Below, piece by piece: positions 12,242 through 63,897 of a DNA stretch of 64,000 bases. The stretch comes from Rhopilema esculentum (Eukaryota), in NCBI RefSeq assembly GCF_013076305.1, contig NW_027019640.1:4874378-4938377 (forward strand), in the 5' to 3' direction. How positions within the stretch are numbered: the stretch's first letter is position 1; the number at the start of each line of letters is the position of its first letter. A program made the position numbers and the translations under genes. The notes under the pieces were generated by a model. It made no database searches, was not told where the DNA came from, and saw only the letters and a list, made by a program, of their open reading frames with translations.

Positions 12242-13207
12242 ATGCCAAAACCACGGGAGGTAGACACTAGAACGAGGCGTGACTATGAGGCACTTCCCAG
12301 TTGTCCCACCATTGCAGGACGCTCTTGCATGGTGCAACCTGGGTCTAAAGTAATTCACCTTTCTGGGTTTGACTTCAGCATGGAAGGAAAGAAAGTTGTT
12401 ATGTCTTTGGAGAATAAGCTCTTGTTAACCTCAAGGCTGCAAGGGAGCGGGTTGTTACAGTCAAAATTAGAGCTAGGCCATCATCGACAAAGCTACAAAA
12501 CGGATGTTCCTGGTGTCTACGATAAACCTACTCATCGAGAACTCGGTGGCGACTCGAGAAATAAAACAAGGCCAGCAACAAGCTTGAATAATGATCTTTT
12601 GCGAAGCAGTGTTGCAAAGCAATTGACAAAAAACAAGCTCTTAGGGCAAACCAGTTACAGTCATAAACATGTGTCTGAGAAAAAGAAGCCAGCAAAAGTG
12701 TCTAGTCTAGAGAAAAATGCCGATAAATTGCAGCATTCAAGTGAAACAAGAGTCACTAAAACCTTACTTCAAAACAAAAGGCTTGAAAAGCCTGTCGCAT
12801 CTAAAGGTTTGGCAGAGAAGAGTTTGACAACTAATTTCTTGCTGAGGTCATCAAATTCAATCAAAACAATGGGAATACAAAGACAAACAATCGATACAAA
12901 CAGTAAAAATATAAACTTCCATTTGAAACCTAAAGCTTTATTGGCAACCAAAGAAAAGCATTCATATCAACCTGGTCCAACAGCTCTATTACAGAGCAAA
13001 GGTGATATTAGAGACAAGGATGCTGCTGTTGAACAGATCATATGCATAAAGGAAGTTCCTCTCGTAAAGCCAATATATAAACTTGCATTTGATGATGAAG
13101 ATCCGTCTAGAGAGTTTTTAGGAAGAAATAATGCCAGCAGTTTCAAAAACATAAGTTTCAAAGATCCATCTGCAGAGAAGGAAAGACTGGCTGTTCAGAA
13201 ATGCAAG
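12242..13207 (+). CDS. TEP1: TEP1 exon 1 (ATG start; Lys/Ser/Leu-rich N-terminal region with degenerate LLxS(K/R) repeats)
   Basis: Long ORF 12242-13294 on the track. Donor AAG|gtatgt at 13208 ends in phase 0. Next exon begins the TROVE region. Confidence 0.6.
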
Positions 13208-46200: not shown

Positions 46201-49200
46201 GGTATTGTATGGTATGGTATGGTATGGTATGGTATGGTATGGTATGGTATGGTATGGTATGGTATGGTATGATATGGTATGGTATGGTATGGTATGGTAT
46301 GGTATGGTATGGTATGGTATGGTATGGTATGGTATGGTATGGTATGATGGTATGGTATGGTATGATATGATATGGTATGGTATGGTATGGTATGGTATGG
46401 TATGGTATGGTATGGTATGGTATGGTATGGTATGGTATGGTATGGTATGGTATGGTATGGTACGGTATGGTATGATATGGTATGGTATGATGGTATGGTA
46501 TGGTATGATGGTATGGTATGGTATGGTATGGTATGGTATGATGGTATGGTATTGTATGGTATGGTATGGTATTGTATGGTATGGTATGGTATGATATGGT
46601 ATGGTATGGTATTGTATGGTATGGTATGGTATGGTATGGTATGGTATGGTATGGTATGGTATGGTATGGTATGGATTGGTATGGTATGGTATGGTATGGT
46701 ATGGTGTGGTATAGTATGGTATAGTATCGTGTGGTATGGTATGTTATTTTATGGTATGGTATGGTATGTTATTTTATGGTATGATATGGTATTGAATGTA
46801 TTCTACCATGTGTGGTATATTGATGTATCGTTATTCAATCTGATTCTTTGAGTGATGACTTTGAACAACTTCAACCGAACGTAAGAAGCCGCAGGTCTTT
46901 TGAAGTAATTTAAAATTTCCTCATCCAACAGGGATGGCTTTGTCGGTGTTTGGAGCCTCTCTCCCCACAGTCAGCTGTCAACTTTTCAGGCATGTATCTG
47001 TTTGTTTCTGATCGCTGATAAATTTTTTGATCATTGAATCTTACAGTTTTGACTACTATCTCCCTATATATATCTGTTTATTCCTCTGGACATAGTGCTG
47101 AACGACAAGCACCTTACCACTTTCTTGTTTGTCATGAATTCTGCTATTTGTCATAGGCGAGTACAAAGAGTGTTAATGCTGCGTGTTTCATTAGCGATGA
47201 GCGATTTGTCACAGGGGATGACCTTGCTTGCCTCTGTTTTTGGACCCTGAGTGGCCAGTTGGTCGACACGTATGTATTATGAATTCTTAACAAATTAGTA
47301 CTGATTTTCCAATTAATTGATTTACCTATATACCTAGAATGGTACTGCAGGCTTTGCAGCTGATGTCCCTTATGTGTGCTTTTAACCATTTTGCCAGGAA
47401 TGTTTTCTATATATCCACGCAATTATCTATTTCATTGGTCCAAAAAAGTACTGTCTAATCCTGAACTTACATTAAGCCGCTTTTTACCATCTTTGGCAGT
47501 TGCAATGACTATTTTAAGATTAATGGAATAAAGGAATAGATTTGCGAATATTTCTTCAAGAGAATTTCTATCTAGTGGATTCTCATACAACAATTTTGGT
47601 CATGTGCTAGTAATTGAATTGCTGCCTTTTTATTATTTCGTGTAAAAAATTTTAAACACTACAATTAAAGCCTTTCGGTAGAATAGTTGAAAAACTTCGT
47701 TTTAAAGACATATTTCAGTGGCGAATGTTTAAAGTAATTGAAAGTTTAATAAAGAGATTTTCTGTCCTTAGGATGGACATTTCATCTGATGGCCACTCGT
47801 ACCCAATCACTTGTATCAATCGCCAGGGGAATTTACTTGCCATTGCTGCTTACAGCCTTTTTGTAGTTTGTTGGATGGATGACGATGATGCCAGGAAATG
47901 GGCGCGTACTTCTATAATGACAGACAATTTGTGAGTTTATCATTCTATGAACTGATTCATTTTGAAAAAATTGATCATTCGCAAGCAAAAAATTAACTCG
48001 ACCCAGCAGAAATAACTAAGTTTCTTTTTTTCTGCATGTCGGCGTATTTTAAAAAACCATATTTAACTTATTCAATTTAAAAAGAACTTTTCTTGTAGTT
48101 TACAGCGTTGGCCTTTCTTGAAATGTAAACGTTCAAATTCAGCTTTTATGTCCGGCCTAAAAATTTTTCAAGACTCATCTAACATTACGTCATTACAGAG
48201 TTCGTGTTTAGAATTTTTTACTTTTGGGCGCGTTACCTGAAAACACACCATGATTGTTCGGGAGATGAATCATGCTCGTCTTCCAGACCTGCACTAGCCC
48301 CCGTTTTAGAGTCATTGCACATGCTCATTATCATTTGAAGCCCTGACGGGAAGTTCAAGAGGTGTGTGGTCATAGACAGAACAGCTGTGCAAATACGGTT
48401 ATCCATGCGCATGTGCTATGACCCTGCAACACTGATTGGTTTAAGACAGTATTGTTTCGAAACAAAGGCCTGAGGGTTTCGTCTCCAGAAAAAAATGAAT
48501 AAAAACTATGACGTCGTCATTTTAATATGCAAAATCAATCAAGTTTGAGTTCAAAACGTTTAGAACCTAGACCAAGTTGTAAATTGAGAATTGGATTTGT
48601 ATTGTTCATTTCGCCATATCTCAACAAATTTGTAACAAATTTAGCTGATATTTCCCACTTAGGTTATGTGGTCCAAAATAAAAAACTCTAAGAAAACGTT
48701 GATGTAACTCTTCCATTGTAAAGAATTGTCGATACATTGTCAGGCCACGTGTTCTTGTTTTTTGACTCTAATAGTGACCCCGTTTTCTTGCCCCAGTTTT
48801 TGCTTTGACGGCTTGTGTTTGTTAAACCTTTCATTCTTCCATACCTTTTTTGTCTTTATCATAAGCTTTGCTTTTAATGGTCCTCTGTTGCCTTTACCTA
48901 TGCATCAGTTCTCTGAATTTTTCTTTAGCATTATTAATCTTCCTTTCTGAATCAGGGGCGGACACTTGGTCAAATATTGGGGAAAGCAAGACGTCACATT
49001 TCCCCATTATTTTAGAACAAACGCCCATTGTCTTCCAAAATATTGGGGGGTGTGATCACCCCCTCACCCCCCAAGTGTCTGTCACTGTTACGAATCTTTC
49101 TTTTCCAGTACCTTTCGACACTAATCAAGATATTTTGCCGCAGAGTTATTTATCTAGTATATTTTTCTGAAAGATTTCTTGAAATATCTCAGGATACTTT

Positions 49201-52044
49201 TCCCAATACGAAAATCTTTCCAAAGAAACTCTGTATCTGTGTAGATTCTGACTCTTTTAGAACTATTTCTTAAAAAATGGATTTTCCCATCTTATCTTGA
49301 ACAACTTTAAGTGGTAATTTGCTAAAATTCTAGTTTTCTAATCTCCACATTGTTTTCTTTGAAGCATTTCCAATGCGCTGAATGAGCCTTGGATAATGGA
49401 TTTAGAAGTTATGAAAGGTGGAAAGACAGTTTTGGCAGCCATCACAGATGACCATATCTGCAGTCTAAACATTTTCGAAAAGGTTTGTTAATTATTTAAA
49501 GCTATAATAATTGTCATCTGTCAATTAATTACCTATTTTTTTGTTTTCTTATCACCTGTGTTGACTATCTTTTCTTTCAGCTACAATCCCGGACAAAATT
49601 GGAGACAAAATGCAATTTTCGCAGTTTTCCAATTTACGTTGCTCTTGTATATTCGAAATCTCCTTTTCAGCCCGAATCAATGTTGTTTTTCTCTTTCTTC
49701 GTTGTTTTCTATAATTCTAATATTCTAATAATATGTAGAGAAACGTGATTGCTTCATAAGCTGTTGCTATATTTCTGGTAAATCATATATTTTGCATGAT
49801 ATTTCTAACGATTTATCATAACATCGTTTTGTATCAATCACATTTAAATTTGTTGGCTGTTGGATTGCGTTAATTGAAAGGCTTTGATTTAATCCGATAG
49901 CATGGACTGGGGTTTTTTTCCTCTAAGACAGGACACTCCATTTGATTTAATCCATAACTTCTTTAAATGATGATGAGCCTTCGTCTTAGTGGGACAGATT
50001 ACAATTCATTAGAACCCCTATTCACAAATAAAATTTCTTATTTTCCAGAAAAGAAAAGATTCGGCTTGGAAATCTCTCATAGAGGTAGCCTAATTCTCTT
50101 AAAGATGCTTTTATGTATTTTAAACTACACAAAACGCTAAAGATTTTATTTATATTGTTTCGCCTATTCTGGACTTTTTCCATTAAATGCAGTATTTCTA
50201 ATGGTAAAAACTGCTGGCTAGGAGAGTAAGGTCGATTGCCGTTGCTCAGATTTGCAGACGGTTTCAAAACTAAAACTTTTAATTCTATCCTTGCTCACTT
50301 TCTAATGTTTTGCTAACTTTAACGTTAGACTGTATTCAAAAGCAAATTTTCTAGGAAAGAAGCATTATCAGTGTAAAGTGGAATTGGGTATATTTGAACT
50401 TCAAAGAGGAAATGTATTTTGTGGCAGCCAATGTAACTCTAACTCATTTGTAACTAAGGATGATTATGAATAAAGGGGAGAATGAGACTAGCCAAAAAAC
50501 ATCAAAATTCGTTTGCACTTGCAGATAGCATCGACACTTATTATTTTAAGAACTATCATAGTTGCTTTCAACCCAAATAGCCCAAACAACATAGTATCTT
50601 TAGCTATCTATTCAAAGCTCTTTCATAATTACGTCATTTTGCTTCAGGTCTCGCTAGATTCAATCAACAGAGCAGAATCATCCATTCGCTATTCACCTGA
50701 AGGTGAACGTCTAGACCTGGAGAAAGATGACAAGATAACCATCTACGCAGCTAGACTGTTTGATTGTTCTGGCAAAGGATGCAAATTATTTGCAACTTCA
50801 GAAGGATGTATAGGATTTGTCATTAATCCCGATCTAGAGGAGCCAGTTCTAAAGGTATGGTTCTAAAGGAGCCAGGAGCCAAATCTTTTGCTCACCCATG
50901 TGACCTTTTTATAAATTTAAAACTATACACAGTTATGGCTACAATCAATGCGAATTTGGATGTTAGTGTATTTTCTTCATTCAGTACTTTCTTTAGATTT
51001 GTATGTCATTTTTTTCTAGGTTAGTAGTTTTATTCCTTTGAAGATTGCAAGGAAGATCGTTTAGAGAAAGTTAGGTTTTTGTCTATTGACATGTAAAGGA
51101 GAACATTATTTTTGGACTCAGGGCAAAAAATGTTCCCAAAAGCATGCAAAGCAACATAATTATTTTTTGTCATAAACCACTTGCCTATGAGAACTTAATA
51201 GTCCCAATCCATTAGACTGTCGGATGAAAATTCATAATTTCTTTCGCTTATTGGTTCATAACTGTTACTCTTAACTAGGCGTTCAATTTTTTCTGAGATG
51301 TCGATATAAAGAGGAAAATTGCGATTGACATTCCTGAAAATGATTAGGACTTCCTTTTCTAGGTACATGAGAGTGCAGTCACGGGTATAGCAATTGTTGA
51401 CAAATTGTTAATAACTGCATCTTCGGATACCACTATCAAGATATGGGATTTGACTGCTTTGCACGAAATCATAGCCGCAAGTAGTGACGTCACAAGCCCG
51501 GCATTCAATCAAAGACTGGTGGAGTTTGTAGAGGCGGGCGGAGTAAAACAGGTACGTTTGACGAAATGTATCCGACCGGAGCCTGTGCTGTGACTATATG
51601 AAAAGCTGATTTATTAAGAAAAGCTCACAGTAAACGAGGTCTACGTTTGATAAATTGACGCGAATTCATGACTTTTTGCAAATCATTCGAAAGTCACCTG
51701 TTAATGTGACTTCAGCGACCATTTTGCAAACACGACCTTATGCTCAGTAGCCAAGCTTTGCGCATGCTCAGAAATAGGAGCATGACCAGAGCAAATCGAT
51801 CGGAAAGCCACCGTTACGCTGATTTTTATTCGCTAAATCGTGTGTATTACAATAAAAAAATAATGCCTATTCACTGCCAAGTAATATACTGCAAACTTTG
51901 ATTTTCGATTTTATTTTTCAGATTGGCTTGTTTTTCTGTCGAGGGCCCATCACGACTCTAGATGCAAAATCAGTTAACGGAGATTGCATCATATTTGCTG
52001 GAGACAAGACTGGGAATGTAGAAATGCTGAAATTTTTAAGATAA
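12242..52044 (+). CDS. TEP1: TEP1 ortholog gene span (telomerase-associated protein 1 / vault protein component), about 55 coding exons; architecture: N-terminal region, TROVE, DUF4062, NACHT, WD40 repeats
   Basis: Exon peptides align collinearly with human TEP1. Examples: [123 protein letters not shown], many WD blades, and a C-terminal GNVEMLKFL versus human GNVYFLNWE. GT-AG introns throughout. Confidence 0.85.
13761..13895 (+). CDS. TEP1: TEP1 exon 2 (TROVE N-terminus: [18 protein letters not shown])
   Basis: Acceptor tttcag|ACT, donor AAG|gtaagt. Human TEP1 has LEPEFILK at the same position. Confidence 0.75.
14792..14953 (+). CDS. TEP1: TEP1 exon 3 (TROVE: [27 protein letters not shown])
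   Basis: Acceptor ttgcag|ATT, donor CAA|gtatga. Near-identical to the human motif LPSDWIQVAELYQ. Confidence 0.8.
15359..15505 (+). CDS. TEP1: TEP1 exon 4 ([36 protein letters not shown]..)
   Basis: Matches human FAQFDEYQLAKYN. Splice sites tttgtag|ACA and AAG|gtacat. Confidence 0.75.
15893..16134 (+). CDS. TEP1: TEP1 exon 5 (acidic Ser-rich cluster [35 protein letters not shown] followed by [26 protein letters not shown])
   Basis: Human has FTLKKLVQRLHI..ALLGYRYP at this position. Donor AA|gtatgt ends in phase 2. Confidence 0.75.
16698..16755 (+). CDS. TEP1: TEP1 exon 6 (K)[19 protein letters not shown]
   Basis: Acceptor ttattag|G completes the AAG codon. Donor GAG|gtactg. Confidence 0.65.
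16884..16983 (+). CDS. TEP1: TEP1 exon 7 ([33 protein letters not shown])
   Basis: Human: KRMKLSRPETWERELSLRGNKASVWEELI. Donor G|gtatca ends in phase 1. Confidence 0.8.
17482..17591 (+). CDS. TEP1: TEP1 exon 8 ([37 protein letters not shown])
   Basis: Human: [32 protein letters not shown]. Confidence 0.8.
17943..18051 (+). CDS. TEP1: TEP1 exon 9 ([36 protein letters not shown])
   Basis: Human: SVIHSRQFPFRFLNAHDAIDALE. Donor ATG|gtaatt ends in phase 1. Confidence 0.8.
18353..18470 (+). CDS. TEP1: TEP1 exon 10 with an RG/RGG repeat insertion ([39 protein letters not shown])
   Basis: In-frame (CGN GGN) repeat. Acceptor cgttcag|GT and donor AG|gtatta keep the frame into exon 11. Confidence 0.65.
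19118..19298 (+). CDS. TEP1: TEP1 exon 11 ([61 protein letters not shown])
   Basis: Human: KYDGEMLNRYRQALETAVNLSVKHSLPLLPGRTVLVYLTD. Confidence 0.75.
19861..20016 (+). CDS. TEP1: TEP1 exon 12 ([52 protein letters not shown])
   Basis: Human: LNYALLLIGMMITRAEQVDVVLCGG..ILKTAIKLQAQVQ. Confidence 0.7.
20943..21014 (+). CDS. TEP1: TEP1 exon 13 ([24 protein letters not shown])
   Basis: Clean acceptor tttcgaag|CTT and donor AAG|gtacga. An additional small exon between exons 12 and 14 cannot be excluded. Confidence 0.55.
21673..21842 (+). CDS. TEP1: TEP1 exon 14 ([56 protein letters not shown])
   Basis: ORF-track frame 21664-21846. Donor AG|gtaggc ends in phase 2. Human: VDRVILLGQSMDDGMINVAKQLYWQ. 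Confidence 0.65.
22816..22872 (+). CDS. TEP1: TEP1 exon 15 ([19 protein letters not shown])
   Basis: Acceptor tttgcag|G. Donor AG|gtaaca keeps the phase into exon 16. Confidence 0.5.
24016..24097 (+). CDS. TEP1: TEP1 exon 16 ([28 protein letters not shown])
   Basis: Acceptor ttcttag|G, donor AAG|gtaaca. Phase consistent. Confidence 0.55.
24400..24653 (+). CDS. TEP1: TEP1 exon 17 (DUF4062 part 1: ..[50 protein letters not shown])
   Basis: Human: [45 protein letters not shown]. Donor AA|gtaatg. Confidence 0.85.
24753..24997. mobile_element. Foldback/MITE-like element: about 75-bp near-perfect terminal inverted repeats flanking about 95 bp of internal sequence
   Basis: Left arm catgtaaaggccgatttccatttgacattttttgtgcgcgtgggcgtagcgcctgaatctgagcatgcgtagtt. 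Right arm aactacgcatgctcagatttgggcgctacgcccgcgcgcacaaaaaatgtcaaatggaaatcggcctttacat. The arms are reverse complements with about 4 mismatches. Located in the TEP1 intron between the DUF4062 exons. Confidence 0.6.
25507..25749 (+). CDS. TEP1: TEP1 exon 18 (DUF4062 part 2: [48 protein letters not shown])
   Basis: Human: [47 protein letters not shown]. Confidence 0.85.
26837..26947 (+). CDS. TEP1: TEP1 exon 19 ([37 protein letters not shown])
   Basis: Acceptor caatctag|A, donor AA|gtattt. Phase consistent with the flanking exons. Confidence 0.55.
27501..27621 (+). CDS. TEP1: TEP1 exon 20 ([41 protein letters not shown])
   Basis: Human: [37 protein letters not shown]. Confidence 0.8.
27967..28149 (+). 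CDS. TEP1: TEP1 exon 21 (NACHT Walker A: ..[41 protein letters not shown])
   Basis: P-loop [10 protein letters not shown]. Human: LSLVTGQSGQGKTAFL. Acceptor ttttgaag|ACC, donor ATG|gtaagt. Confidence 0.85.
28690..28850 (+). CDS. TEP1: TEP1 exon 22 (NACHT: [53 protein letters not shown])
   Basis: Acceptor gtttcag|GCA, donor AA|gtaaaa. Phase continues into the Walker B exon. Confidence 0.7.
29726..29876 (+). CDS. TEP1: TEP1 exon 23 (NACHT Walker B: [51 protein letters not shown])
   Basis: Human: QTQVLIIDGADRLVDQNGQLISDWIPKKLPR. Confidence 0.8.
30671..30853 (+). CDS. TEP1: TEP1 exon 24 ([42 protein letters not shown])
   Basis: Human: CVHLVLSVSSDAGLGETLEQ..ARLVREELALYGKRLEESPFNNQ. Confidence 0.85.
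31248..31340 (+). CDS. TEP1: TEP1 exon 25 ([31 protein letters not shown])
   Basis: Human: MRLLLVKRESGRPLYLRLVTDHLRLFTLYEQ. Confidence 0.8.
31859..31991 (+). CDS. TEP1: TEP1 exon 26 ([44 protein letters not shown])
   Basis: Human: VSERLRTLPATVPLLLQHILSTLEKEHGPDVL. Donor A|gtattt ends in phase 1. Confidence 0.75.
32508..32697 (+). CDS. TEP1: TEP1 exon 27 ([48 protein letters not shown])
   Basis: Human: LTVDQLHGVLSVW..GPFACLVQSLRSLLGEGPLER. The exact donor (AG|gttgat) is uncertain. Confidence 0.5.
33003..33103 (+). CDS. TEP1: TEP1 exon 28 ([34 protein letters not shown])
   Basis: Acceptor ttctgacag|T, donor G|gtatga. Phase links exons 27 and 29. Loose match to human ARLCLPDGPLRTAAKRCYGKR. 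Confidence 0.5.
33854..33933 (+). CDS. TEP1: TEP1 exon 29 ([27 protein letters not shown])
   Basis: Acceptor ttctag|CT, donor ATG|gtaggc. Phase consistent. Confidence 0.55.
34601..34715 (+). CDS. TEP1: TEP1 exon 30 ([38 protein letters not shown])
   Basis: Human: LTNLHVVAAHLELGLVSRLLEAHAL. Donor G|gtacgt ends in phase 1. Confidence 0.65.
34876..34940 (+). CDS. TEP1: TEP1 exon 31 ([22 protein letters not shown])
   Basis: Human: FRTFLRQQASILSQYPRLL. Splice sites ttattag|TT and AAG|gtttgc. Confidence 0.6.
35154..35197 (+). CDS. TEP1: TEP1 exon 32 ([14 protein letters not shown], small phase-bridging exon)
   Basis: Required to bring exon 31 into frame with exon 33. Acceptor ttttag|AAT, donor CG|gtaagt. 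Confidence 0.55.
35415..35571 (+). CDS. TEP1: TEP1 exon 33 ([53 protein letters not shown])
   Basis: Human: HLQHTLRWLNKPRTMKNQ, just before the WD region. Confidence 0.75.
35889..35984 (+). CDS. TEP1: TEP1 exon 34 (WD: [32 protein letters not shown])
   Basis: Human: AVAFSTNGQRAAVGTANGTVYLLDLRT. Confidence 0.8.
36461..36585 (+). CDS. TEP1: TEP1 exon 35 (WD: [41 protein letters not shown])
   Basis: WD40 GH..WD motifs. Splice sites tttttag|GAC and AG|gtgagg. Confidence 0.75.
36986..37135 (+). CDS. TEP1: TEP1 exon 36 (WD: [50 protein letters not shown])
   Basis: ORF 36966-37175. Donor AC|gtatgt. Confidence 0.75.
37469..37577 (+). CDS. TEP1: TEP1 exon 37 (WD: [37 protein letters not shown])
   Basis: Human: CLGGCLKLWDTVRGQ. 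Confidence 0.75.
37606..37730. repeat. (ATCAT)n microsatellite of about 25 copies in a TEP1 intron
   Basis: Direct reading: atcatatcatatcat.. with one G variant. Confidence 0.95.
37913..38032 (+). CDS. TEP1: TEP1 exon 38 (WD: [40 protein letters not shown])
   Basis: WD40 pattern. Splice sites ttctacag|CTG and AGG|gtatgc. Confidence 0.75.
38955..39053 (+). CDS. TEP1: TEP1 exon 39 ([33 protein letters not shown])
   Basis: Splice sites gttag|GTA and AAG|gtttgt, in phase. Confidence 0.65.
39385..39648 (+). CDS. TEP1: TEP1 exon 40 ([27 protein letters not shown])
   Basis: Human has the identical VWSGSLGRPRG motif. Donor AAA|gtgagt. Confidence 0.8.
40521..40672 (+). CDS. TEP1: TEP1 exon 41 (WD: [50 protein letters not shown])
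   Basis: Human: LLASASEDFTVQLWPRQLLTRPHKAED. Confidence 0.7.
40798..40897 (+). CDS. TEP1: TEP1 exon 42 (WD: [34 protein letters not shown])
   Basis: Human: CGTELRGHEGPVSCCSFSTDGGSLATGGRDRS. Confidence 0.75.
41656..41763 (+). CDS. TEP1: TEP1 exon 43 (WD: [36 protein letters not shown])
   Basis: Human: LLCWDVRTPKTPVLIHSFPACHRDWVTGCAWTKDNLL. Confidence 0.85.
42468..42575 (+). CDS. TEP1: TEP1 exon 44 (WD: [36 protein letters not shown])
   Basis: Human: SCSSDGSVGLWDPESGQRLGQFLGHQSAVSAVA. Confidence 0.85.
43428..43955. mobile_element. Putative MITE-like element with about 22-bp terminal inverted repeats (ctaaggtccttaRtagaagggg) and internal poly-G tracts, in a TEP1 intron
   Basis: The left end ctaaggtccttagtagaagggga and the right end ccccttctattaaggaccttag are reverse complements. 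Internally there is a duplicated segment tcagaaaWWttttcaaaaaaTaaataagcg followed by G12-18 runs. A related fragment aaggaccttcaagggagggggggggg occurs at about 18925-18960. Confidence 0.45.
44027..44152 (+). CDS. TEP1: TEP1 exon 45 (WD: [42 protein letters not shown])
   Basis: Human: HVVSVSRDGTLKVWDHQGVELTSIPAHSGPI. Confidence 0.85.
44714..44860 (+). CDS. TEP1: TEP1 exon 46 ([49 protein letters not shown])
   Basis: Human: ELLVVTVGLDGATRLWHPLLV. Confidence 0.75.
45198..45323 (+). CDS. TEP1: TEP1 exon 47 (WD: [42 protein letters not shown])
   Basis: Human: CQTHTLLGHSGPVRAAAVSETSGLMLTASEDGSVRLWQ. Confidence 0.8.
46023..46108 (+). CDS. TEP1: TEP1 exon 48 ([28 protein letters not shown])
   Basis: Acceptor tttccatag|TTC, donor AG|gtaaat. 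Followed by an intron carrying the (GGTAT)n repeat. Confidence 0.6.
46201..46795. repeat. (GGTAT)n microsatellite of about 600 bp in a TEP1 intron, with occasional GATAT/GGTATT/GATGGTAT variants
   Basis: Direct reading. It is the source of the spurious [10 protein letters not shown] ORFs in the six-frame track. Confidence 0.95.
46932..46989 (+). CDS. TEP1: TEP1 exon 49 ([20 protein letters not shown]), apparent GC donor
   Basis: Frame continuity with the next exon ([11 protein letters not shown]..) requires the exon to end at TTTCAG, followed by gcatgt. Human: EDGSVRLWQVPKEADDTCIP. Confidence 0.5.
47157..47269 (+). CDS. TEP1: TEP1 exon 50 ([37 protein letters not shown])
   Basis: Human: SSAAVTAVAWAPDGSMAVSGNQAGELILW. 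Donor AC|gtatgt. Confidence 0.6.
47772..47930 (+). CDS. TEP1: TEP1 exon 51 ([53 protein letters not shown])
   Basis: Human: LTSLDWAPDGHFLILAKADLKLLCMKPGDAPSEIWSSYTENPM. Donor TT|gtgagt. Confidence 0.8.
49365..49482 (+). CDS. TEP1: TEP1 exon 52 ([40 protein letters not shown])
   Basis: Splice sites tttgaag|C and AAG|gtttgt, in phase. Confidence 0.6.
50648..50854 (+). CDS. TEP1: TEP1 exon 53 ([69 protein letters not shown])
   Basis: Human: SSFLCASSDGILWNLAKCSPEGEW. ORF 50513-50866. Confidence 0.7.
51363..51551 (+). CDS. TEP1: TEP1 exon 54 (WD: [45 protein letters not shown])
   Basis: Human: IHSGSVTALHVLPELLVTASKDRDVKLWERPSMQLL. Confidence 0.85.
51922..52044 (+). CDS. TEP1: TEP1 terminal exon ([40 protein letters not shown], stop TAA)
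   Basis: Human C-terminus: LGLFRCEGSVSCLEPWLGANSTLQLAVGDVQGNVYFLNWE. Stop codon at 52042-52044. Confidence 0.85.
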   Translation: MGLFFCRGPITTLDAKSVNGDCIIFAGDKTGNVEMLKFLR

Positions 52045-53100
52045 CTACTTTGAAATGTTCATTCCAAAATTACTGATGACAGACTTGGAAACATTAGGAA
52101 ATAATGTACATTTATGTCACTGCACGTCTTATTAATTTGAATCGTTTGCATAGATTAAACATAATTTATTAACATTGATTTAGGATATGGGCAATAGTAT
52201 ATTATATCGATACTCTAAATTTGCACATTGTTTTGGTCCTAGGGTTAGGATTCGATTGGACAGATTAAACTTGGCATTGTTTCCATAACATAACCAGTAA
52301 AGGGGCAATGTATACGACAAAACCCGTTATGTACCAAAGTCTGGTCTGCTCAGATTCTTGCAAAATGGGTTCCATTTGATGTGTAATATGAAGGCTCGTA
52401 ACATAAAGGAATAAAGCAATTTCAAATTATGTGCTTTTCGTAAAACTAGGTTCATACGCTGGAAGTTTCTGTGATCCAAAATCAAGCAGTTTGTTTAGAT
52501 TTTTTTTAAATATATCTATAACCCAATAGATTATAATCTATCTATAACCCTCCAGAGTAATAATTTGAAAATTCTATCGGCCTATATACCCTAGATAAAC
52601 TTTTATAATAATTAGGTTTTATAATCAACAACAGAAATTTGAATTTAACCAGACATATAATGAATCCATTTTTTATTAAAAAATCTTTTGAATTACACTT
52701 TGGTTTTTATTTTTATTTTGTGTTTAATTGCACCTGTAGAGCCAAAGACGGAAGTATGAAGAACCTAAATTAGTTTCGATCTTTTGAAAAATCTTGTTTA
52801 TTCCATTATCCGAGTCAAGAAAACTGGTTTTTGGTACTGGAAAATAGCAGTGGTGAGTTACTTATGTTACCTCTGCTCAAATCGAGTGGATTTCATGTAA
52901 GGAACCAATTGGTGGATTCTCATATTTTGCTTCCGTGTCTAAAATTTCAACAAAGTTCATGCTTATCTCACCATTAGAAAAACGAGAAATTTGTATCTTC
53001 TAATAATTTAATTGCTTTCTACAAGTAATAGAGACAATTCTTTTTAAGAATATATAAAATTTTATTGCAGCATTTGAACAAATTAAAATCCATACTAAAG

Positions 53101-53106
53101 TTTATT
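53101..53106 (-). promoter_or_regulatory. Polyadenylation signal AATAAA for the CUB-LDLa gene
   Basis: The plus-strand sequence tttatt at 53101-53106 is AATAAA on the minus strand, just downstream of the stop codon that ends at 53162. Confidence 0.5.
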
Positions 53107-53161: not shown

Positions 53162-54865
53162 CTACGCACACACTTCGGCATTGGGCTTATTATGACCTTC
53201 TTGCGTCGCGACGTCTGTTTTCTGGTTAACATACTGTATCGACGTTTCCTCAACATGATTGTAAATAGCTTGTGTTTCTTGGTTGTGCTGGCTAGGTGAT
53301 GAGGTTTCCGTAGCTGCATCACGTTCACGGTATGCAGGCAGTCTGGGGATCTCATATGCAGGAAGTTTAGGCGAATTTTTGTCTTGGTAGGAATGTTGTA
53401 GTCTTTCATGCAGTACTCTGTCCATTGAAAGCACAAACAAGCATACAAATAGGACGAACACTGTGAGCAAAAGAACTAAAAGTGTACCTCTGATAAAACT
53501 AAAGGTATTGTCGTTTCCATGATTTGTCAAAGAGAAGCCTTCAACTTGCCCATCACTGCACTCAGCCTCATCAATTGCGTCTTCACAGTCTGCAATACCG
53601 TCACATTTCCATTCGCAATCAATAAAGTGTCCATTAGAGCACCTGAAGAATCGCCTTTCTCCGATGTAAATGCAATCTTCAGTCGATGTATCAAGATTAA
53701 TTTGTGCCTGATAGACAGCTTGAAAAGATATCCCATTGGATCTGTAGTTGTCTCTAACAGTTCTGCGAACAATCCTTAGTCCGTTTGTCTCCGTTGCAAG
53801 TTCCATTGGCGGAAACATACCGTTGGCTGAAGACCATAGCAGACGAGTTTCGTTAATGTTGAGACCATCGTATATGGCCAATTCTTGCGATTGGCCTGGG
53901 ATCGAAGGCCCGTTTGCATACTTGAGAAAACGCAATGATATTGAATGGATAGGAGGGACCTCGACTTCCCACTGGCAATTCTGGGTAGATGTTTGGAACG
54001 TGGCATAATGCAGAGGCACTGAGATGCTGCCAAACAGCCCGCTCATTTTGCTGCTGCATCGATCAACAAACTCGTAGTTCATTACAATTCTTGGAATCTG
54101 GGGCGTCAAATCCGAAGTGAAACTTGGTTGCTTCGTAAAATCGATTGTAATAGCATTTTGTGAGGACACTATGCTTCCAGCTGGCGGATTTTCGTCGCAG
54201 AAATCTCCCAGTATCTGCTGATCATCATTATCACCTTCCATGATAGCAAGGTTCTGGAAAATGCAAGAACCTGGAGGCAGAGAAAACTGGGAAAATGATA
54301 ATTTAATAATTTTGCTAGATCCTGTATTCAGTTTCCAACTGCAGTTTTGGAAGGACGAAGAAAGGTGCAGAGACAAGGGAACCACGATTTGACCCTGCGG
54401 CTCTGTTAGCAGCCCGCCACAGTGCGTGTCTTCAAAGAAAGCATCAAATACGACATAATCTCTCTTTGCAGCGAATAACTCAACCTTTAATCTGTTGTAC
54501 TGTGAAAATATAACACTTCCTGGTTTTAGTTCAAAAAATGTTATGTTGCTTAATTCAGCTGTGGAGTGTCCGTTTAGATATTCCGTTATTACAAGGCTGT
54601 CGTTTACATCCAGGCTTATTTCCTTCAAGACCACCGCAATCTTATGGCCAGGTGCCATTTCTATCGTCCATTTGCAGTGTATATAGTTCTCGATTGTCTT
54701 GTTGTGTTGCTGTGATGGCGGTAAAGTCATAACGCCGCTCCTTTCTTGTGTGAACTTGTAACCACAATTTTCATGTGCGAAAGCAAAATTCGAAGCATGT
54801 GCGAAAGCAAAAATCGCGAGAAGTGCCCGCAAAAGCATTATCGGCTTCGATGTTTTTGGTGACAC
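53162..54865 (-). CDS. Intronless gene for a type-I membrane protein: signal peptide, 3 CUB domains, LDL-receptor class A domain, TM helix, cytoplasmic tail (Neto/LRP3-like CUB-LDLa protein)
   Basis: Uninterrupted 567-aa ORF on the track. N-terminal hydrophobic MLLRALLAIFAFAHA. Three Cys-spaced modules beginning CGYKF.., CGGLLTEPQG.., CSSKMSGLFG.. with CUB-like spacing. LDLa consensus CSNGHFIDCEWKCDGIADCEDAIDEAEC. TM helix LLVLLLTVFVLFVCLFVL. Minus-strand AATAAA (tttatt at 53101-53106) lies about 55 nt past the stop. Confidence 0.75.
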   Translation of the reverse strand: MSPKTSKPIMLLRALLAIFAFAHASNFAFAHENCGYKFTQERSGVMTLPPSQQHNKTIENYIHCKWTIEMAPGHKIAVVLKEISLDVNDSLVITEYLNGHSTAELSNITFFELKPGSVIFSQYNRLKVELFAAKRDYVVFDAFFEDTHCGGLLTEPQGQIVVPLSLHLSSSFQNCSWKLNTGSSKIIKLSFSQFSLPPGSCIFQNLAIMEGDNDDQQILGDFCDENPPAGSIVSSQNAITIDFTKQPSFTSDLTPQIPRIVMNYEFVDRCSSKMSGLFGSISVPLHYATFQTSTQNCQWEVEVPPIHSISLRFLKYANGPSIPGQSQELAIYDGLNINETRLLWSSANGMFPPMELATETNGLRIVRRTVRDNYRSNGISFQAVYQAQINLDTSTEDCIYIGERRFFRCSNGHFIDCEWKCDGIADCEDAIDEAECSDGQVEGFSLTNHGNDNTFSFIRGTLLVLLLTVFVLFVCLFVLSMDRVLHERLQHSYQDKNSPKLPAYEIPRLPAYRERDAATETSSPSQHNQETQAIYNHVEETSIQYVNQKTDVATQEGHNKPNAEVCA

Positions 54866-56235
54866 ACGGCTTCAATCGCGAATCGCTTCCTTAAATGTCA
54901 ACTCCACATTTACTTTGTCCTAGCAATAGATTACAGGATTTCTCGCACAAGCCTTACCTTAATGCTGCGACTTAACATTACATCATGCAACGCAGCGAAG
55001 CGTGCAAAAATCACTCGAGTGAATGGCTGCGCAGTGGTCACGCATTACCATGCCATGTTTATTCAAGCCCGAGGCTAGATAAAGCTTTCTGCGGGCTAAA
55101 GCCAAAGACTGTAACATGTGTAGTATATAAACCAAACTATAGTATTTTTCCCATCTTGGTCCCCTCCTTACCTCGGACCTGTGCTTATTTTCCTTATGAG
55201 TAAATTTATAACGAGTTTATAGGAATAACATAATACCAGTAGCAAAATCGATAATTCAAAACAGATTTTTTACAGTTTCATCGCTTGATTTTGGTATCTC
55301 TTGTAGCTTTGTTAGACTCCAAATTGAGTTCAGTGATGACTGGAAACCGCGATCTGCCTTTTCTGCTGTTTGGACCCAAGTAAAATTATCCAAAGAGTAA
55401 CAGTAATTTATGTCTATATTGGAGCTGGTCAAACTCAAAATGGCTAATATTAAGATTTCAAGTTGAAGGGTAAACCTTGCTAAAAGAGGACAAATTACTG
55501 AGGAAAGCTGAACATTTCTGGCATAATGTCATTTTTTATTGAAAATAGCAAACTAACAATAATTTCTGCCGGCTTTTGCGTTCTTTATCCCAAACCAAAC
55601 GCCGAAACAAACAATGGTAAACTGAGCAGTCCGGCTCATTGGTTTACTGGTAGGTACCGGTAGCCACGGTGGACATTATGACGACCCGGAGATAAAGCTG
55701 CCCTTCGCAGAAGACGAAAAAAGATTTTCAAAAGCGCTTTTCCTGGGGAAAAAGGCGTCTTTTAAGCACACTGTTGCTGCATTCATATAACTTTTGCCCT
55801 TAAAGAACTCCCTATTAAGTTCGTCATTATATGGTTGGTCTTTGATGCAAATAATATGCTTGTTGAATAAGTCAGTCAGGCATGCGGAGCTCCAAGCCCC
55901 AGCATCCCCTTTGCAGGTGAATTACATTGTGAAATGGTGCTATAATTGTATGAAATATAGTATAATATATGTTTAAATGAACTTAAGTATAATGCAAGAA
56001 GACATCAACCTTTACTTGAATCACAATTTAACTCAGATTCATTTTTGCACGCTTGCCATCCAACAACTTTAGAATCGTTGGCCATCGCACAAAATAGTGT
56101 AACCTGATGAATTTAAATTTAACCGAGTAATTTGGGAGAATTTTCCAATGCGAGGATGGAATATGGGTAGAAAACCCAGGGTGGTTACTAGATTTTGTAA
56201 TCAAGAGGGGGAGGGGGGAGGGGGGTTCCAAGTCT

Positions 56236-59953: not shown

Positions 59954-60347
59954 ATGAAATACAAAAGAAAAAGGAGCAGCTAGAATCATTCATAAATGAA
60001 ACAAGTTTTCTTGATGGATTGAATCTGACACTAGGTCAAGAAGAAACGGATACACAGTTCAATGAAACTGAACAGACGGAGGAAGCAACTAAAGAAAAAG
60101 CACGGTGGAACTGTAATTTGATGTCCCTGTTTTCTTCTCAGGAGGAACAAAAAGTTGTTTTAGTAAAGAATGACACACAGCTATCAGATGTCATTGCAAA
60201 GTCAAATGAAAGTCAAAGTTGCTTTTTGTTGTATTTTTATGTTGGTTGGTGTGAGTTTTGTGCAGATTTTGCTGCAGAGATAAATACTGTTGGAAGAGTT
60301 TACTTTGGTTTACCTGTATTGGCAGTTGAATCATATTATTTGTCAAG
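59954..60347 (+). CDS. Thioredoxin-like protein exon 2 (..NDTQLSDVIAKSNESQSCFLLYFYVGWCEFCADFAAEINTVGRVYFGLPVLAVESYYLS)
   Basis: Thioredoxin-fold active-site-like W-C-x-x-C (WCEFC). Acceptor ttctgttag|AT joins exon 1 in frame. Continues the track ORF 60019-60399. Confidence 0.65.
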
Positions 60348-61787
60348 GTATTTCTTTCTTCTATTATTTGTATATGTATGTTATGTTATTGTTCCTTAGT
60401 CTCAGCGATAATCTTAAAAGGATGAAAGGGTCTTAGCAAAAGCCTCAACAGACAGAAAATTACTAATTGGAAGATTATTTAAATTGACAGGAGAAAAAGT
60501 ACAACATTTTAATCTAAGTCAGCTCTCAGCAATATGGACCTAAATGCAGAGCGTGGATGAAGCACTAAAATTTGGCTTGTTTATCTTGAACTTGTTATCT
60601 TTTATGGTTGCTGCAAAAATGAGCAAAGCTTACTATTCAAACCTGCACACTTCTTGATCATTCAGTTAGCCAGGCATTCAATACTTTACTTTTTCCACAC
60701 CTCATATTTCCTTACCAAGGATTCTTCCTCTGTGTTTGTAAAAGCATTTCTATCCAGAAAATTTCTAAAAAAGTCTAGAATTAAGTCTACCCCATACCCT
60801 CTATAAATTGATGCATAGCCCCTTGGGAAAAATCATGGCTGCCATTTAAATCCTGCTTGTGGTGGACCTTAAGGGAAGAATCTCCATAGGTTTTACACAG
60901 GCCTTTCCTGGAGATGCCGGCTATAGCCCCCACTCGTGCAAAATAGATTTGCGGGGGCTTTTTTCTGCCCGTGCAGTTCTTCAAACCATTATTCTCATTT
61001 TATCTACACAGTTTAGCTCCCCAATGTTTGTTCTACTCACCGCTAAATATCAGGGTGTTAGTGAATAAAGAGAAAGAGGTCTTAAAGGCAATCTGCCTCG
61101 TTGTGGACTAATTAACAAGAACAATATCTGGAACAATAGCCTAAACACAATTCCAGTGCTCCGCCATATTTTTTACAATGTGATAAATTAAAGGGTGTTA
61201 TGGTCTCTCCTTGCATAAAGACTTTTTGCGTTGAGCATGAATTGAATAGCGATTCATTGGAATTGTGTGCATTTTGAACCCCCTTTTGTTGTTTGGACAA
61301 TAGAATTTAAGGTGAAAATCAAGGTAAATAGTATTTAAAGAATTATCATTGTAATGTATTTTTGCCTTTGTAAATACTCAAATATAAAAAAATTAACAAC
61401 AGTTCTAAATAGCCCATGCAGCCAAACTTGCAAGGGCTTCTTATAGGTTGTGTTGTTTTTTTTTCTGGAGAGACCTGCACACAGTTTGGTAAAATGTGAG
61501 CTTACAAATATAGTTATTTTCAGATTTTGTTTTTATCTTGCAACAATGCAATTTTTGCTTTTTCTTTGTCAAGTCTGATACCTGGTTTGTAAAGCAATTA
61601 CTGACAAAAACACAAGGCCACAAGTTACCTCAAACATTTTTTGAAGACCCACTCTGAACATATTTTTTTGAAAATCTGCAATAACCATAAAATGTTTGTT
61701 TTACAGTTATAAATTTAAAACTGAGAGATCCATTTAAGTTCTGGCTAAGTGGCTTTTGTGACTTTTTTTACATAATTTTTTTCTCAG

Positions 61788-61915
61788 TATTGCTGGCAAG
61801 TTTGGAGTAACTGGTGTTCCAACATTAATTCTTTTCTACAATGGTCGTCCAGTTGCTAAGTTCAACAGAACAAGATCGTTACAAGGATTAGAAGATTTCA
61901 TCAGCCATACAACTG
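61788..61915 (+). CDS. Thioredoxin-like protein exon 3 (SIAGKFGVTGVPTLILFYNGRPVAKFNRTRSLQGLEDFISHTT)
   Basis: Typical Trx-fold segment (cis-Pro region V-P-T-L..F..G). Acceptor tttctcag|T, in frame with exon 2. Confidence 0.65.
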
Positions 61916-62690
61916 GTATGTCTTAGCAAAATTTCCCATTTATATTTCTCTACTGAACAAGCTACTTTTCATGTATTGAAAATGGTACGTTTATGTCAGA
62001 CAATTTGCTTGTGTTTATGGCTTTATATGTGGGTGAATTCACTACCAGGAGAAAAGTAAGATTTACTCCCAATCTGATTGATGTACATCAAGCAGAGCTT
62101 TTTGGTTTCTGGTTTGGGAGGTCTGGTCTTAGTCCATAGAGCATTGGTTGATACTATGACAGAAAATGATTTTCAGATTTGTGAAAAGAAATAAAAATAT
62201 TTTGCAAACAAGGCAATTTGGCTTTAAGCAGCCAAATGAAATCTAATAATAAATGTTTACGAATAGCATTATAACAATGATTCTAACAAACCTACCTCAG
62301 CCAACTAAAGTCCCAGTACAAGAGAAGTTGTACCTATGCCTGCGCAATTTTAATCATACAAACAATTTTTAGGGTTTTTTTAGAACATGCGCCTCAATGT
62401 ACAGACTAGGCATCATGTTGACTTGTGCCAAGTCAAGTCTCATTATGGTATAAATGAGAGCTTTCGGGCATCACTGTAAACTTTTTAGTAATGAGTAAAA
62501 AGAAGCATTGGATGTGCATTCACTTTTTATCGTTCTGCCATTTAAATGTGTAACCTTGGAACATTCCCATAGAAACATCTGATCCACTGTCTATCTGTTT
62601 AGATCTCAGTGAAGTACATCGTGTATGCACTGTTTAGGATGCATGACCCAGCCCCTTTCAAAAGGCTGCATAATGTTCGTCAAAAAAGTT

Positions 62691-63575
62691 TTCCAAATCT
62701 CTTTCACATCAAAATTTCCATCTCATCAGGCTAAGAATTTTTCCAATTTCCTTTCACATCAAAATTTCCATCTCATCAGGCTAAGAATGTTTCCAATTTC
62801 CTTTCACATCAAAATTTCCATCTCATCAGGCTAAGAATGTTTCCAATTTCCTTTCACATCAAAATTTCCATTTCATCAGGCTAAGAATGTTTCCAATTTC
62901 CTTTCACATCAAAATTTCCATTTCATCAGGCTAAGAATGTTTCCAATTTCCTTTCACATCAAAATTTCCATCTCATCAAGGCTAAGAATGTTTCCAATTT
63001 CCTTTCACATCAAAATTTCCATTTCATCAGGCTAAGAATGTTTCAATTTCCTTTCACATCGAAATTTCCATTTCATCAGGCTAAGAATGTTTCCAATTTC
63101 CTTTCACATCAAAATTTCCATCTCATCAAGCTAAGAATGTTTCCAATTTCCTTTCACATCAAAATTTCCATTTCATCAGGGTTAGAATGTTTCCAATTTT
63201 CTTTCACATCAAAATTTCCAACTCATCAGGCTAAGAATGTTTCCAATTCCCTTTCACATCAAAATTTCCATTTCATCAAGTTAAGAATGTTTCCAATTTC
63301 CTTTCACATCAAAATTTCCATCTCATCAAGCTAAGAATGTTTCCAATTTCCTTTCACATCAAAATTTCCATTTCATCAGGCTAAGAATGTTTCCAATTTC
63401 CTTTCACATCAAAATTTCCATTTCATCAGGCTAAGAATGTTTCCAATTTCCTTTCACATCAAAATTTCCATTTCATCATCTAAGGCTTCTTTTCACATCA
63501 GGCTAAGGATATTTCAAATTCCTTTTTCAAATTTTCATCTTTTCAGGCTAAGAATGTTTCTAATTTCTTTTCACA
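62691..63575. repeat. 50-bp minisatellite of about 17 tandem copies (unit ttccaatttcctttcacatcaaaatttccatYtcatcaggctaagaatgt) in the last intron of the thioredoxin-like gene
   Basis: The line-to-line register shifts by 10 nt per 60-nt line, so the period is 50 nt. Copies differ by a few point changes (c/t, cagg/caag) and 1-nt indels. Confidence 0.9.
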
Positions 63576-63675
63576 TTGATATTTATTGTATATAGGAGCA
63601 AGTAAAAATATTAGTATTTGGGTAAATAATTATTGCTGCAAGCATTTTAAGTATTCTCATTATTTTCATTTCTAG

Positions 63676-63897
63676 GTTTATCTTCAAATATATCCATGCG
63701 TACTGATGACAAAGACTTTGAAGGGCCTCTTCCCACTAAAATTAGATGAGCAAGGTGACATTTATCTTACCTTGTCATTCATTTCAATTGTTGTAATTGC
63801 TATTACCAGTTGGTGTTTAACTGAACAAGCCCAGTCCATAATCAAAATGCTTTGTAATAGGTTCAAGTGTTGGGCTTTACATGAGAAAACTGACTAA
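63676..63897 (+). CDS. Thioredoxin-like protein terminal exon with a TM helix (..GLFPLKLDEQGDIYLTLSFISIVVIAITSWCLTEQAQSIIKMLCNRFKCWALHEKTD, stop)
   Basis: ORF 63706-63897 contains a 20-aa hydrophobic helix. Acceptor tttctag|GTT. The phase relative to exon 3 is not cleanly resolved; an alternative phase gives a short tail ending at a TGA near 63750. Confidence 0.4.
   Translation, partial: VYLQIYPCVLMTKTLKGLFPLKLDEQGDIYLTLSFISIVVIAITSWCLTEQAQSIIKMLCNRFKCWALHEKTD

Follow-up and report, generated by a model that had tools for sequence, protein, structure and literature searches.

A stretch of 64,000 nucleotides from Rhopilema esculentum (assembly GCF_013076305.1, contig NW_027019640.1, positions 4,874,378 to 4,938,377; hereafter, the window) carries on its reverse strand a gene whose single-exon coding sequence (CDS) specifies a protein with a probable signal peptide, three CUB domains, one LDL-receptor class A (LDLa) repeat, a single transmembrane (TM) helix and, in its cytoplasmic tail, two LPxY motifs. 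On balance, we consider it probable that this is a functional type I membrane receptor, one of a family of cnidarian proteins, and that PY motifs in its disordered tail couple it to WW-domain ubiquitin ligases. The architecture of the protein, its conservation and the selection acting on it were read from genomes, alignments and structural models, and it is from these that we infer ligand binding by the ectodomain and coupling to Nedd4-family ligases by the tail. The gene itself is already present in NCBI, under a misleading name.

Domain architecture and the cnidarian family

When the domains were scored individually against Pfam, the three CUB domains reached 25.8, 47.6 and 23.3 bits (cut-off 21.4) and the LDLa repeat 29.1 bits (cut-off 24.1). 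All four therefore lie above the curated cut-offs and, together with one transmembrane segment, they bear out the CUB-CUB-CUB-LDLa-TM order that had been proposed in an earlier note on this DNA. A structural model generated with AlphaFold 2 (AF2) on 32 homologues, with a mean predicted local distance difference test score (pLDDT) of 77.9, was used in place of an earlier model on 9 sequences, which was discarded as too poor (pLDDT 58). It contains three beta-sandwich CUB domains at a pLDDT of ~90, a small LDLa repeat, a long helix spanning residues 445-483 and a disordered tail. The LDLa repeat possesses the calcium-cage signature, formed by W410, D413, D417, D423 and E424; in relatives of the LDL receptor such calcium-cage residues clamp lysines of the ligand, and they are kept in the Rhopilema repeat. 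An in-frame FAFAHASN/FAFAHEN duplication at the end of the signal peptide was absent from the aligned scyphozoan orthologues.

A first protein search returned eight homologues at 41-46% protein identity, and a word-indexed protein search with a 16-sequence alignment recovered the same eight scyphozoan sequences only. A profile run against 1.8 billion representative proteins added about a dozen more, one of them from Sanderia malayensis, each matching as a single colinear stretch from the first CUB domain to the tail. A distant member of the family, used as a query in its turn, brought in ~25 further proteins. Among these were 'tolloid-like protein 2 [Actinia tenebrosa]' and clusters whose members include 'CUB domain-containing protein 2 [Pocillopora verrucosa]' and a protein of Porites harrisoni. 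There are ~60 colinear homologues in all, and those with a named source come solely from Scyphozoa and Anthozoa: Rhopilema, Sanderia, an Aurelia-type annotation, Actinia, Pocillopora and Porites. The Aurelia-like cluster bears the tag 'GoldUCD ... product=Cubilin', which we infer to denote the Aurelia genome annotation, and a third clade (P0033-P0052) is suspected to be hydrozoan. Among bilaterian proteins, searches that were not exhaustive found no colinear match, and a literature search for a described cnidarian protein with three CUB domains and an LDLa repeat yielded nothing relevant.

A hidden Markov model (HMM) of the family separated its members, which scored at least 523 bits over a single full-length stretch, from cubilins and other multi-CUB proteins, which reached at most 240 bits per stretch and matched over the CUB region only. 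The Rhopilema protein scored 572 bits in one stretch (HMM positions 17-559). Columns invariant across 32 members comprise the cysteine frameworks of the CUB and LDLa domains, a few core aromatic residues, D80, D423, E424 and Y503. As judged from its sequence, the Rhopilema protein is a member of this family by every feature that defines it: a colinear profile match, the cysteine framework and an [L/P]PxY motif 40-60 aa past the membrane span. The proteins of this one family appear in public databases as 'cubilin-like', 'Cubilin', 'tolloid-like protein 2', 'CUB domain-containing protein 2' and 'hypothetical protein', none of which reflects the LDLa repeat, the membrane span or the PY motif.

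In the tails of the 32 aligned members Y503 was invariant and P501 nearly invariant, and an [L/P]PxY motif was present 40-60 aa past the membrane span in 45 of the 45 members examined, compared with 1.3 expected from shuffled tails. By alignment, this is the sole cytoplasmic feature conserved across the whole family. PY motifs of the PPxY and LPxY types are recognised ligands of Nedd4-family WW domains (PMC8509885, PMC2824488). The YxxI/YxxV-like motifs previously proposed for the tail, YEIP and YVNQ, did not hold up: proline and glutamine fill their Phi positions, YEIP begins at the tyrosine that ends the first LPAY, YVNQ is not conserved, and it is [L/P]PxY that has been kept. Endocytic signals of the YxxPhi type were rejected in general, as the sole true YxxV, YNHV (aa 526), aligned with no conserved column.

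Other tail features vary between lineages. A D[ST]xPLI motif of the acidic-dileucine type lies near the C-terminus in nearly all anthozoan-type members, and no motif of this type was found in the tail of the Rhopilema protein or in other scyphozoan tails. The Rhopilema protein ends in -EVCA, anthozoan members in -VIEL or -PLIV, and several scyphozoan orthologues in T-x-V/A. In addition, anthozoan tails share NDTxPLI...SVIEL at the C-terminus, and five proteins of the possibly hydrozoan clade (P0033, P0034, P0039, P0040 and P0052) share LFHDTDVIES far downstream of their PY motifs; neither sequence was present in scyphozoan proteins.

The intronless coding sequence and its origin

In the list of open reading frames (ORFs), the gene appears as a frame of 567 aa opening with GTG (53162..54865, reverse strand), the longest in the window, where the next-longest has 350 aa. 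At the ~7% stops per codon expected for the base composition of the window, the chance of an open frame of ~560 codons is ~e^-40 by our own arithmetic, so that the frame is not a chance occurrence. The first ATG lies at 54838, and the resulting product of 558 aa is identical to NCBI XP_065063102.1, 'cubilin-like [Rhopilema esculentum]' (100% identity over 100% of the length), which implies that the annotated CDS is one exon. The single open frame described at 567 aa is thus real, with its start to be moved from 54865 to this ATG. The GC content of the window (31-41%) is in keeping with the 36% reported for the Rhopilema genome (PMC7172023). As had been noted, AATAAA follows the gene closely, at 58 and 98 nt past the stop codon; as a signal this is weak evidence, with six copies in the 1.1 kb AT-rich spacer downstream. 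A scan for sigma-70 promoters and terminators, which is irrelevant to a eukaryote, returned background levels only. A donor-like AAG|GTAAG at ~54955 was considered as a sign of an intron in the 5' untranslated region (UTR) and rejected as such, since an orthologous RNA contig reads unspliced through the equivalent site.

The uninterrupted ORF recurs, between a thioredoxin-domain gene and TEP1 as in Rhopilema, in at least four other scyphozoan-like assemblies. Four orthologues (P0003, P0004, P0005 and P0009) were each found as an unbroken ORF on a genomic contig, the contigs measuring 0.36-2.2 Mb. A 94%-identical relative (L010) has the same uninterrupted 558-codon ORF; between it and the Rhopilema gene there are 59.5 synonymous and 38.5 non-synonymous differences, for a ratio of non-synonymous to synonymous substitution rates (dN/dS) of 0.16. 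Two Aurelia-like orthologues gave a dN/dS of 0.15. Judged by these substitution patterns, the Rhopilema gene is under purifying selection. Evidence of transcription came from a 9.7 kb RNA-derived contig of the species that carries P0005 (L003; Logan ERR13148255). Compared with the genomic locus of the same species (L002), this contig lacks 12 introns with clear junctions from the neighbouring TEP1 and thioredoxin-domain genes, and it aligns as one colinear 3.3 kb block across the CUB gene with both its flanks. The orthologue in this species is therefore transcribed and unspliced. Contigs of 2.4-2.8 kb with the Aurelia-like orthologue also recur in several sequencing runs.

The intronless state extends to Anthozoa. 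The gene range of the Actinia tenebrosa homologue is 1857 bp, exactly 618 codons and a stop, next to an RPE65 gene that has introns, and the ORFs of coral-type members likewise run unbroken, on contigs of 0.4-3.2 Mb. Wherever a genomic copy was examined, in Scyphozoa and in Anthozoa, its CDS proved to be one exon, and the intronless state is therefore most likely ancestral to the family and most likely predates the split between anthozoans and medusozoans.

How did such a gene arise? The earlier note had remarked on a single-exon gene amid intron-rich neighbours, and this contrast is real: an orthologous TEP1 transcript maps onto at least 30 separate short exons of the window (26.8-52.0 kb), and Rhopilema genes have a mean of 7.9 exons, with a mean exon length of 199 bp (PMC7172023). 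The setting had suggested a retrogene, and might point to a recent one, or even to a processed pseudogene, particular to this lineage. Such an origin now appears highly improbable, as the same ORF and the same neighbours occur in several scyphozoan-like genomes at a mere 41-46% protein identity, dN/dS is 0.15-0.16, and the sea anemone gene is intronless too. Nor was any close paralogue that could have served as a parent gene found among the 9 matches from a protein database that includes the Rhopilema proteome, the genome itself not having been searched. Past the 3' end of the Rhopilema gene there is no A-tract that could be a poly(A) remnant, and the only flanking direct repeat that might be a target-site duplication, of 22 nt with a 77% match, is at chance level. 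The other suggestion, of a lineage-specific compact gene, stands if the lineage is taken to be the phylum Cnidaria, and not otherwise.

An ancient retrocopy is a good deal easier to entertain, and we regard it as a real possibility, if a tentative one. In this scenario the spliced mRNA of an intron-bearing multi-CUB gene would have been reverse-transcribed and inserted in the cnidarian stem, where the copy gained a promoter and has been kept since. The scenario concerns origin only, is compatible with receptor function, and competes with gradual intron loss and with a gene that was intronless from the outset. It would account for a four-domain mosaic ectodomain without any intron in either Anthozoa or Scyphozoa, in surroundings that are intron-rich and a genome averaging 7.9 exons per gene (PMC7172023), and it is consistent with CUB domains that are closest to those of the cubilin type. 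However, the hallmarks of retrocopying are gone (no poly(A) tract, a flanking repeat at chance level), no parent gene was found, and at such an age a retrocopy is hard to tell from complete loss of introns.

Neighbouring genes and upstream region

Table 1 Features of the CUB receptor gene and its surroundings (positions within the window).
Feature	Position	Strand	Evidence
Complete CDS, one exon; 558 codons and TAG stop (53162-53164)	53162..54838	-	ORF list, translation, NCBI match
Upstream in-frame GTG	54865	-	start in the earlier note
Probable signal peptide, hydrophobic N-terminus MLLRALLAIFAFAHA, aa 1-15	54794..54838	-	hydrophobicity; AF2 helix 2-13 at low pLDDT
In-frame 24-nt tandem duplication, end of signal peptide	54772..54816	-	copies 95% identical
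CUB domain 1, aa 25-137; single disulfide pair C25/C55; D80 invariant in family	54428..54766	-	Pfam, alignment, AF2
CUB domain 2, aa 140-258; C140/C166/C192/C214 all invariant	54065..54421	-	Pfam, alignment, AF2
CUB domain 3, aa 261-379; C261/C288 invariant	53702..54058	-	Pfam, alignment, AF2
LDLa repeat, aa 389-427; six invariant cysteines	53558..53674	-	Pfam, alignment
Single transmembrane helix, aa 450-472	53423..53491	-	Kyte-Doolittle, AF2
Cytoplasmic tail, aa 473-558, predicted disordered	53165..53422	-	sequence, AF2
Two PY motifs, LPAY aa 492-495 and LPAY aa 500-503	53330..53365	-	alignment
First AATAAA, 58 nt past stop, putative signal	53101..53106	-	sequence
Second AATAAA, 98 nt past stop	53061-53066	-	sequence
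Conserved non-coding block, ~43 nt, TTTGCACGCTTCGCT...TGATGTAAT...AAGTCGCA	54966..55008	-	five-locus comparison
TEP1 (convergent neighbour), last coding exon and stop (52042-52044)	51919..52044	+	orthologous transcript mapping, Pfam
Thioredoxin-domain gene (divergent upstream neighbour), at least 3 coding exons	60064..63897	+	mapping; syntenic in orthologous loci

The CUB gene lies tail-to-tail with TEP1, as previously described at a distance of 1.1 kb, with 1118 bp between the two stop codons. TEP1 was identified through an orthologous transcript that carries the Pfam domains Beta-prop_TEP1_2nd (230 bits, cut-off 89) and Beta-prop_TEP1_C (110 bits, cut-off 32). The order thioredoxin-domain gene, CUB gene, TEP1 is kept in L001, L002 and L003, with the same orientation in L001 and L002, and in L004 a C-terminal exon of TEP1 lies downstream of the CUB gene. 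It follows that this arrangement is older than the divergence of these species.

On the RNA contig L003 the thioredoxin-domain gene, the CUB receptor and TEP1 are joined together, with most introns of the two neighbours cleanly removed, which suggests that the 5' ends of the divergent pair overlap and that the 3' UTRs of the convergent pair overlap or abut. One junction on this contig (L002 7503/8670), in GATGAT-rich sequence, does not have the canonical splice signals and could have arisen in the assembly. An intron found just upstream of the orthologue (L002 9115-9499) was assigned to the thioredoxin-domain gene on the opposite strand rather than to the CUB gene, on account of its CT..AC ends.

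The upstream region contains a short non-coding block, 110-190 nt before the ATG, that is nearly invariant in five scyphozoan loci (the window, L001, L002, L004 and L007), the flanks being otherwise unalignable. Elsewhere it reads TTTGCACGCTTCGCT..CATTACGTAAT..AAGTCGCA, and in Rhopilema the middle part is TGATGTAAT; it includes a palindromic bZIP-type site, TTACGTAA. The block may represent a promoter or 5'UTR element, perhaps one shared with the divergent thioredoxin-domain gene or acting bidirectionally.

Several further observations were made in the surrounding sequence. In one stretch between exons of TEP1 (window 46199-46792), ATGGT is repeated ~120 times as an (ATGGT)n microsatellite, which explains both a spike in GC skew at 46-48 kb and the overlapping but spurious ORFs of that region. 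A 50-bp satellite (15.8 copies, 95% identity; window 62690-63478 and 63345-63576) is located between mapped exons 2 and 3 of the thioredoxin-domain gene. An ORF of 350 aa on the forward strand (window 12242-13294) encodes a K/S/L-rich, disordered-looking product without a Pfam match and could be a large exon or a single-exon gene. Downstream of the Aurelia-like orthologue, at a distance of a few kb, a 551-aa ORF (L007 16205-17860, reverse strand) with a weak Pfam match to RAG1_RNase_H could encode a Transib-like transposase.

Known CUB/LDLa proteins and the proposed receptor function

Two of the public names of the family point to cubilin, a protein of ~3600 aa with EGF repeats and 27 CUB domains that is not known to have a membrane span or LDLa repeat. 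Individual CUB domains of the Rhopilema family are indeed most similar to those of cubilin, and the best matches in the PDB, by sequence and by fold, are to cubilin CUB5-8. Even so, there is scarcely any likelihood that the protein is a cubilin fragment or a cubilin-like secreted protein, or a tolloid-like protease as the Actinia name would have it. A Pfam scan of the Rhopilema protein contained neither an EGF repeat nor an astacin domain; its LDLa repeat, TM helix and cytoplasmic tail are features that cubilin is not known to possess; and the family HMM cleanly splits it from multi-CUB proteins of 3000-4700 aa. In the Actinia homologue (P0196), the Pfam list likewise holds only CUB-type and LDLa families, with no astacin, whereas true BMP1 matches list PF01400.

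The layout of the protein invites comparison with NETO1/NETO2, Drosophila Neto and C. elegans SOL-2, which are likewise type I proteins with tandem CUB domains followed by one LDLa repeat and a membrane span. When the 32-sequence profile was compared with the PDB, Neto2 (7f56_E) was the only solved protein among the matches listed that aligned in a single colinear stretch, with profile positions 143-538 matching Neto2 44-417 across CUB-CUB-LDLa-TM (E 3e-37). This raises the possibility that the Rhopilema protein is an auxiliary subunit of the Neto/SOL-2/LEV-10 type, a pre-bilaterian relative of the NETOs that uses its CUB domains to bind ionotropic glutamate receptors or acetylcholine receptors and controls how these cluster or gate. 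Such a role is consistent with the T-x-V/A ends of several scyphozoan orthologues, which resemble class I PDZ ligands of the kind present in NETO1/2, and the number of CUB domains is known to vary among NETO-related families, with four in SOL-1 and five in LEV-10 (PMC9083331).

Nevertheless, we consider a Neto-type role unlikely. Despite a match that spans more domains, Neto2 is outscored by cubilin, PCPE-1 and neuropilin in all of the sequence searches and in Foldseek, and the CUB domains of the Rhopilema family are no nearer to those of Neto than to those of cubilin, PCPE and neuropilin. When a single anthozoan CUB3-LDLa-TM sequence was used as the query, its CUB3 alone aligned, out of register, with CUB1 of Neto2, so that the colinearity holds at the level of architecture only. 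NETOs have two CUB domains, to which the Rhopilema protein adds a third at the N-terminal side. Its family is defined by an [L/P]PxY tail rather than a PDZ ligand. A review of NETO-related proteins does not list the PY motif among the features of Neto tails (PMC9083331), and C-termini that read -EVCA in Rhopilema and -VIEL in anthozoans are not a conserved PDZ ligand. Finally, the published origin of the NETOs lies within bilaterians (PMC9282427). The likeness to Neto thus appears to be one of layout, kinship not being demonstrated. More doubtful still is the idea that the family is the cnidarian sister group of NETO/SOL/LEV-10, with an ancestral form that coupled channel partners to Nedd4-type ligases via PY motifs; if true, it would make CUB-LDLa auxiliary channel subunits older than Bilateria, contrary to the published origin of the NETOs (PMC9282427).

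Other relatives by layout were compared by description rather than by sequence in the case of LRP3/10/12, LEV-10 and SOL-1. C. elegans LEV-10 and SOL-1 are type I proteins with several CUB domains, and LEV-10 also has one LDLa repeat (PMC9083331), but their five and four CUB domains exceed the three of Rhopilema, and both have been described as protostome-specific (PMC9282427). LRP3, LRP10, LRP12 and LRAD3 have a small ectodomain of CUB and/or LDLa domains and one membrane span, and the tails of LRP10 and LRAD3 carry PPxY. In LRP3/10/12, however, CUB domains alternate with several LDLa repeats (PMC11315911), in place of three consecutive CUB domains and a single LDLa, and LRAD3 has no CUB domain. 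The tails are alike in having an [L/P]PxY motif, LPxY in Rhopilema and PPxY in LRP10 and LRAD3. The acidic dileucine motifs of LRP10 (PMC11315911) are paralleled by the anthozoan D[ST]xPLI and by nothing in Rhopilema. The resemblance to Neto/SOL-2 or LRP3/LRP12 that had been put forward therefore survives as a loose likeness, with membership in either group unsupported.

The reading we favour is that of a receptor coupled to WW-domain ligases. Under this model, the CUB/LDLa ectodomain would bind an extracellular or cis-membrane protein ligand, and the invariant [L/P]PxY would recruit proteins with WW domains, among which HECT ubiquitin ligases of the Nedd4 family are the most plausible partners. 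There are precedents among related receptors: LRAD3 activates Itch via two PPxY motifs, and LRP10, itself a CUB/LDLa receptor, has a proline-rich tail with PPxY and dileucine sorting motifs (PMC11315911). By analogy with proposals for LRAD3 and LRP10, recruitment of a ligase would cause the receptor and its cargo to be internalised and turned over in a ubiquitin-dependent manner.

A number of points weigh against this model. The proposed link to Nedd4 would depend on one short linear motif, which is also bound by WW domains from outside the Nedd4 family, for instance those of YAP/Yorkie, and every member of the family is so far an orphan receptor. In a reading of the alignments against the textbook motif, the canonical calcium-site acids of the CUB domains look incomplete in the Rhopilema protein, and CUB-mediated binding may for that reason work differently. 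The evidence of transcription comes from orthologues in other species, and the single-exon statement for Rhopilema covers the CDS, with UTR introns possible. Moreover, most of the collections searched call genes as uninterrupted ORFs, in which intron-bearing members would be fragmented, missed and hence under-sampled.

The finding is a modest one, within the known class of CUB/LDLa type I receptors. What is new is a coherent family with sharp limits, to date known from cnidarians alone, whose members are scattered under four different and mostly wrong public names. Exon shuffling is the usual explanation for the spread of mosaic domains such as CUB and LDLa, and a multi-domain CDS of this kind that has been kept intron-free in both Anthozoa and Scyphozoa is unusual. 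New, too, is the [L/P]PxY motif as the only conserved cytoplasmic feature of the family. Together these features make the family a candidate for asking whether Neto-like proteins preceded the bilaterians, and they provide a testable hypothesis for an orphan cnidarian receptor, in which the capture of a ligand would be coupled to Nedd4-family ligases.

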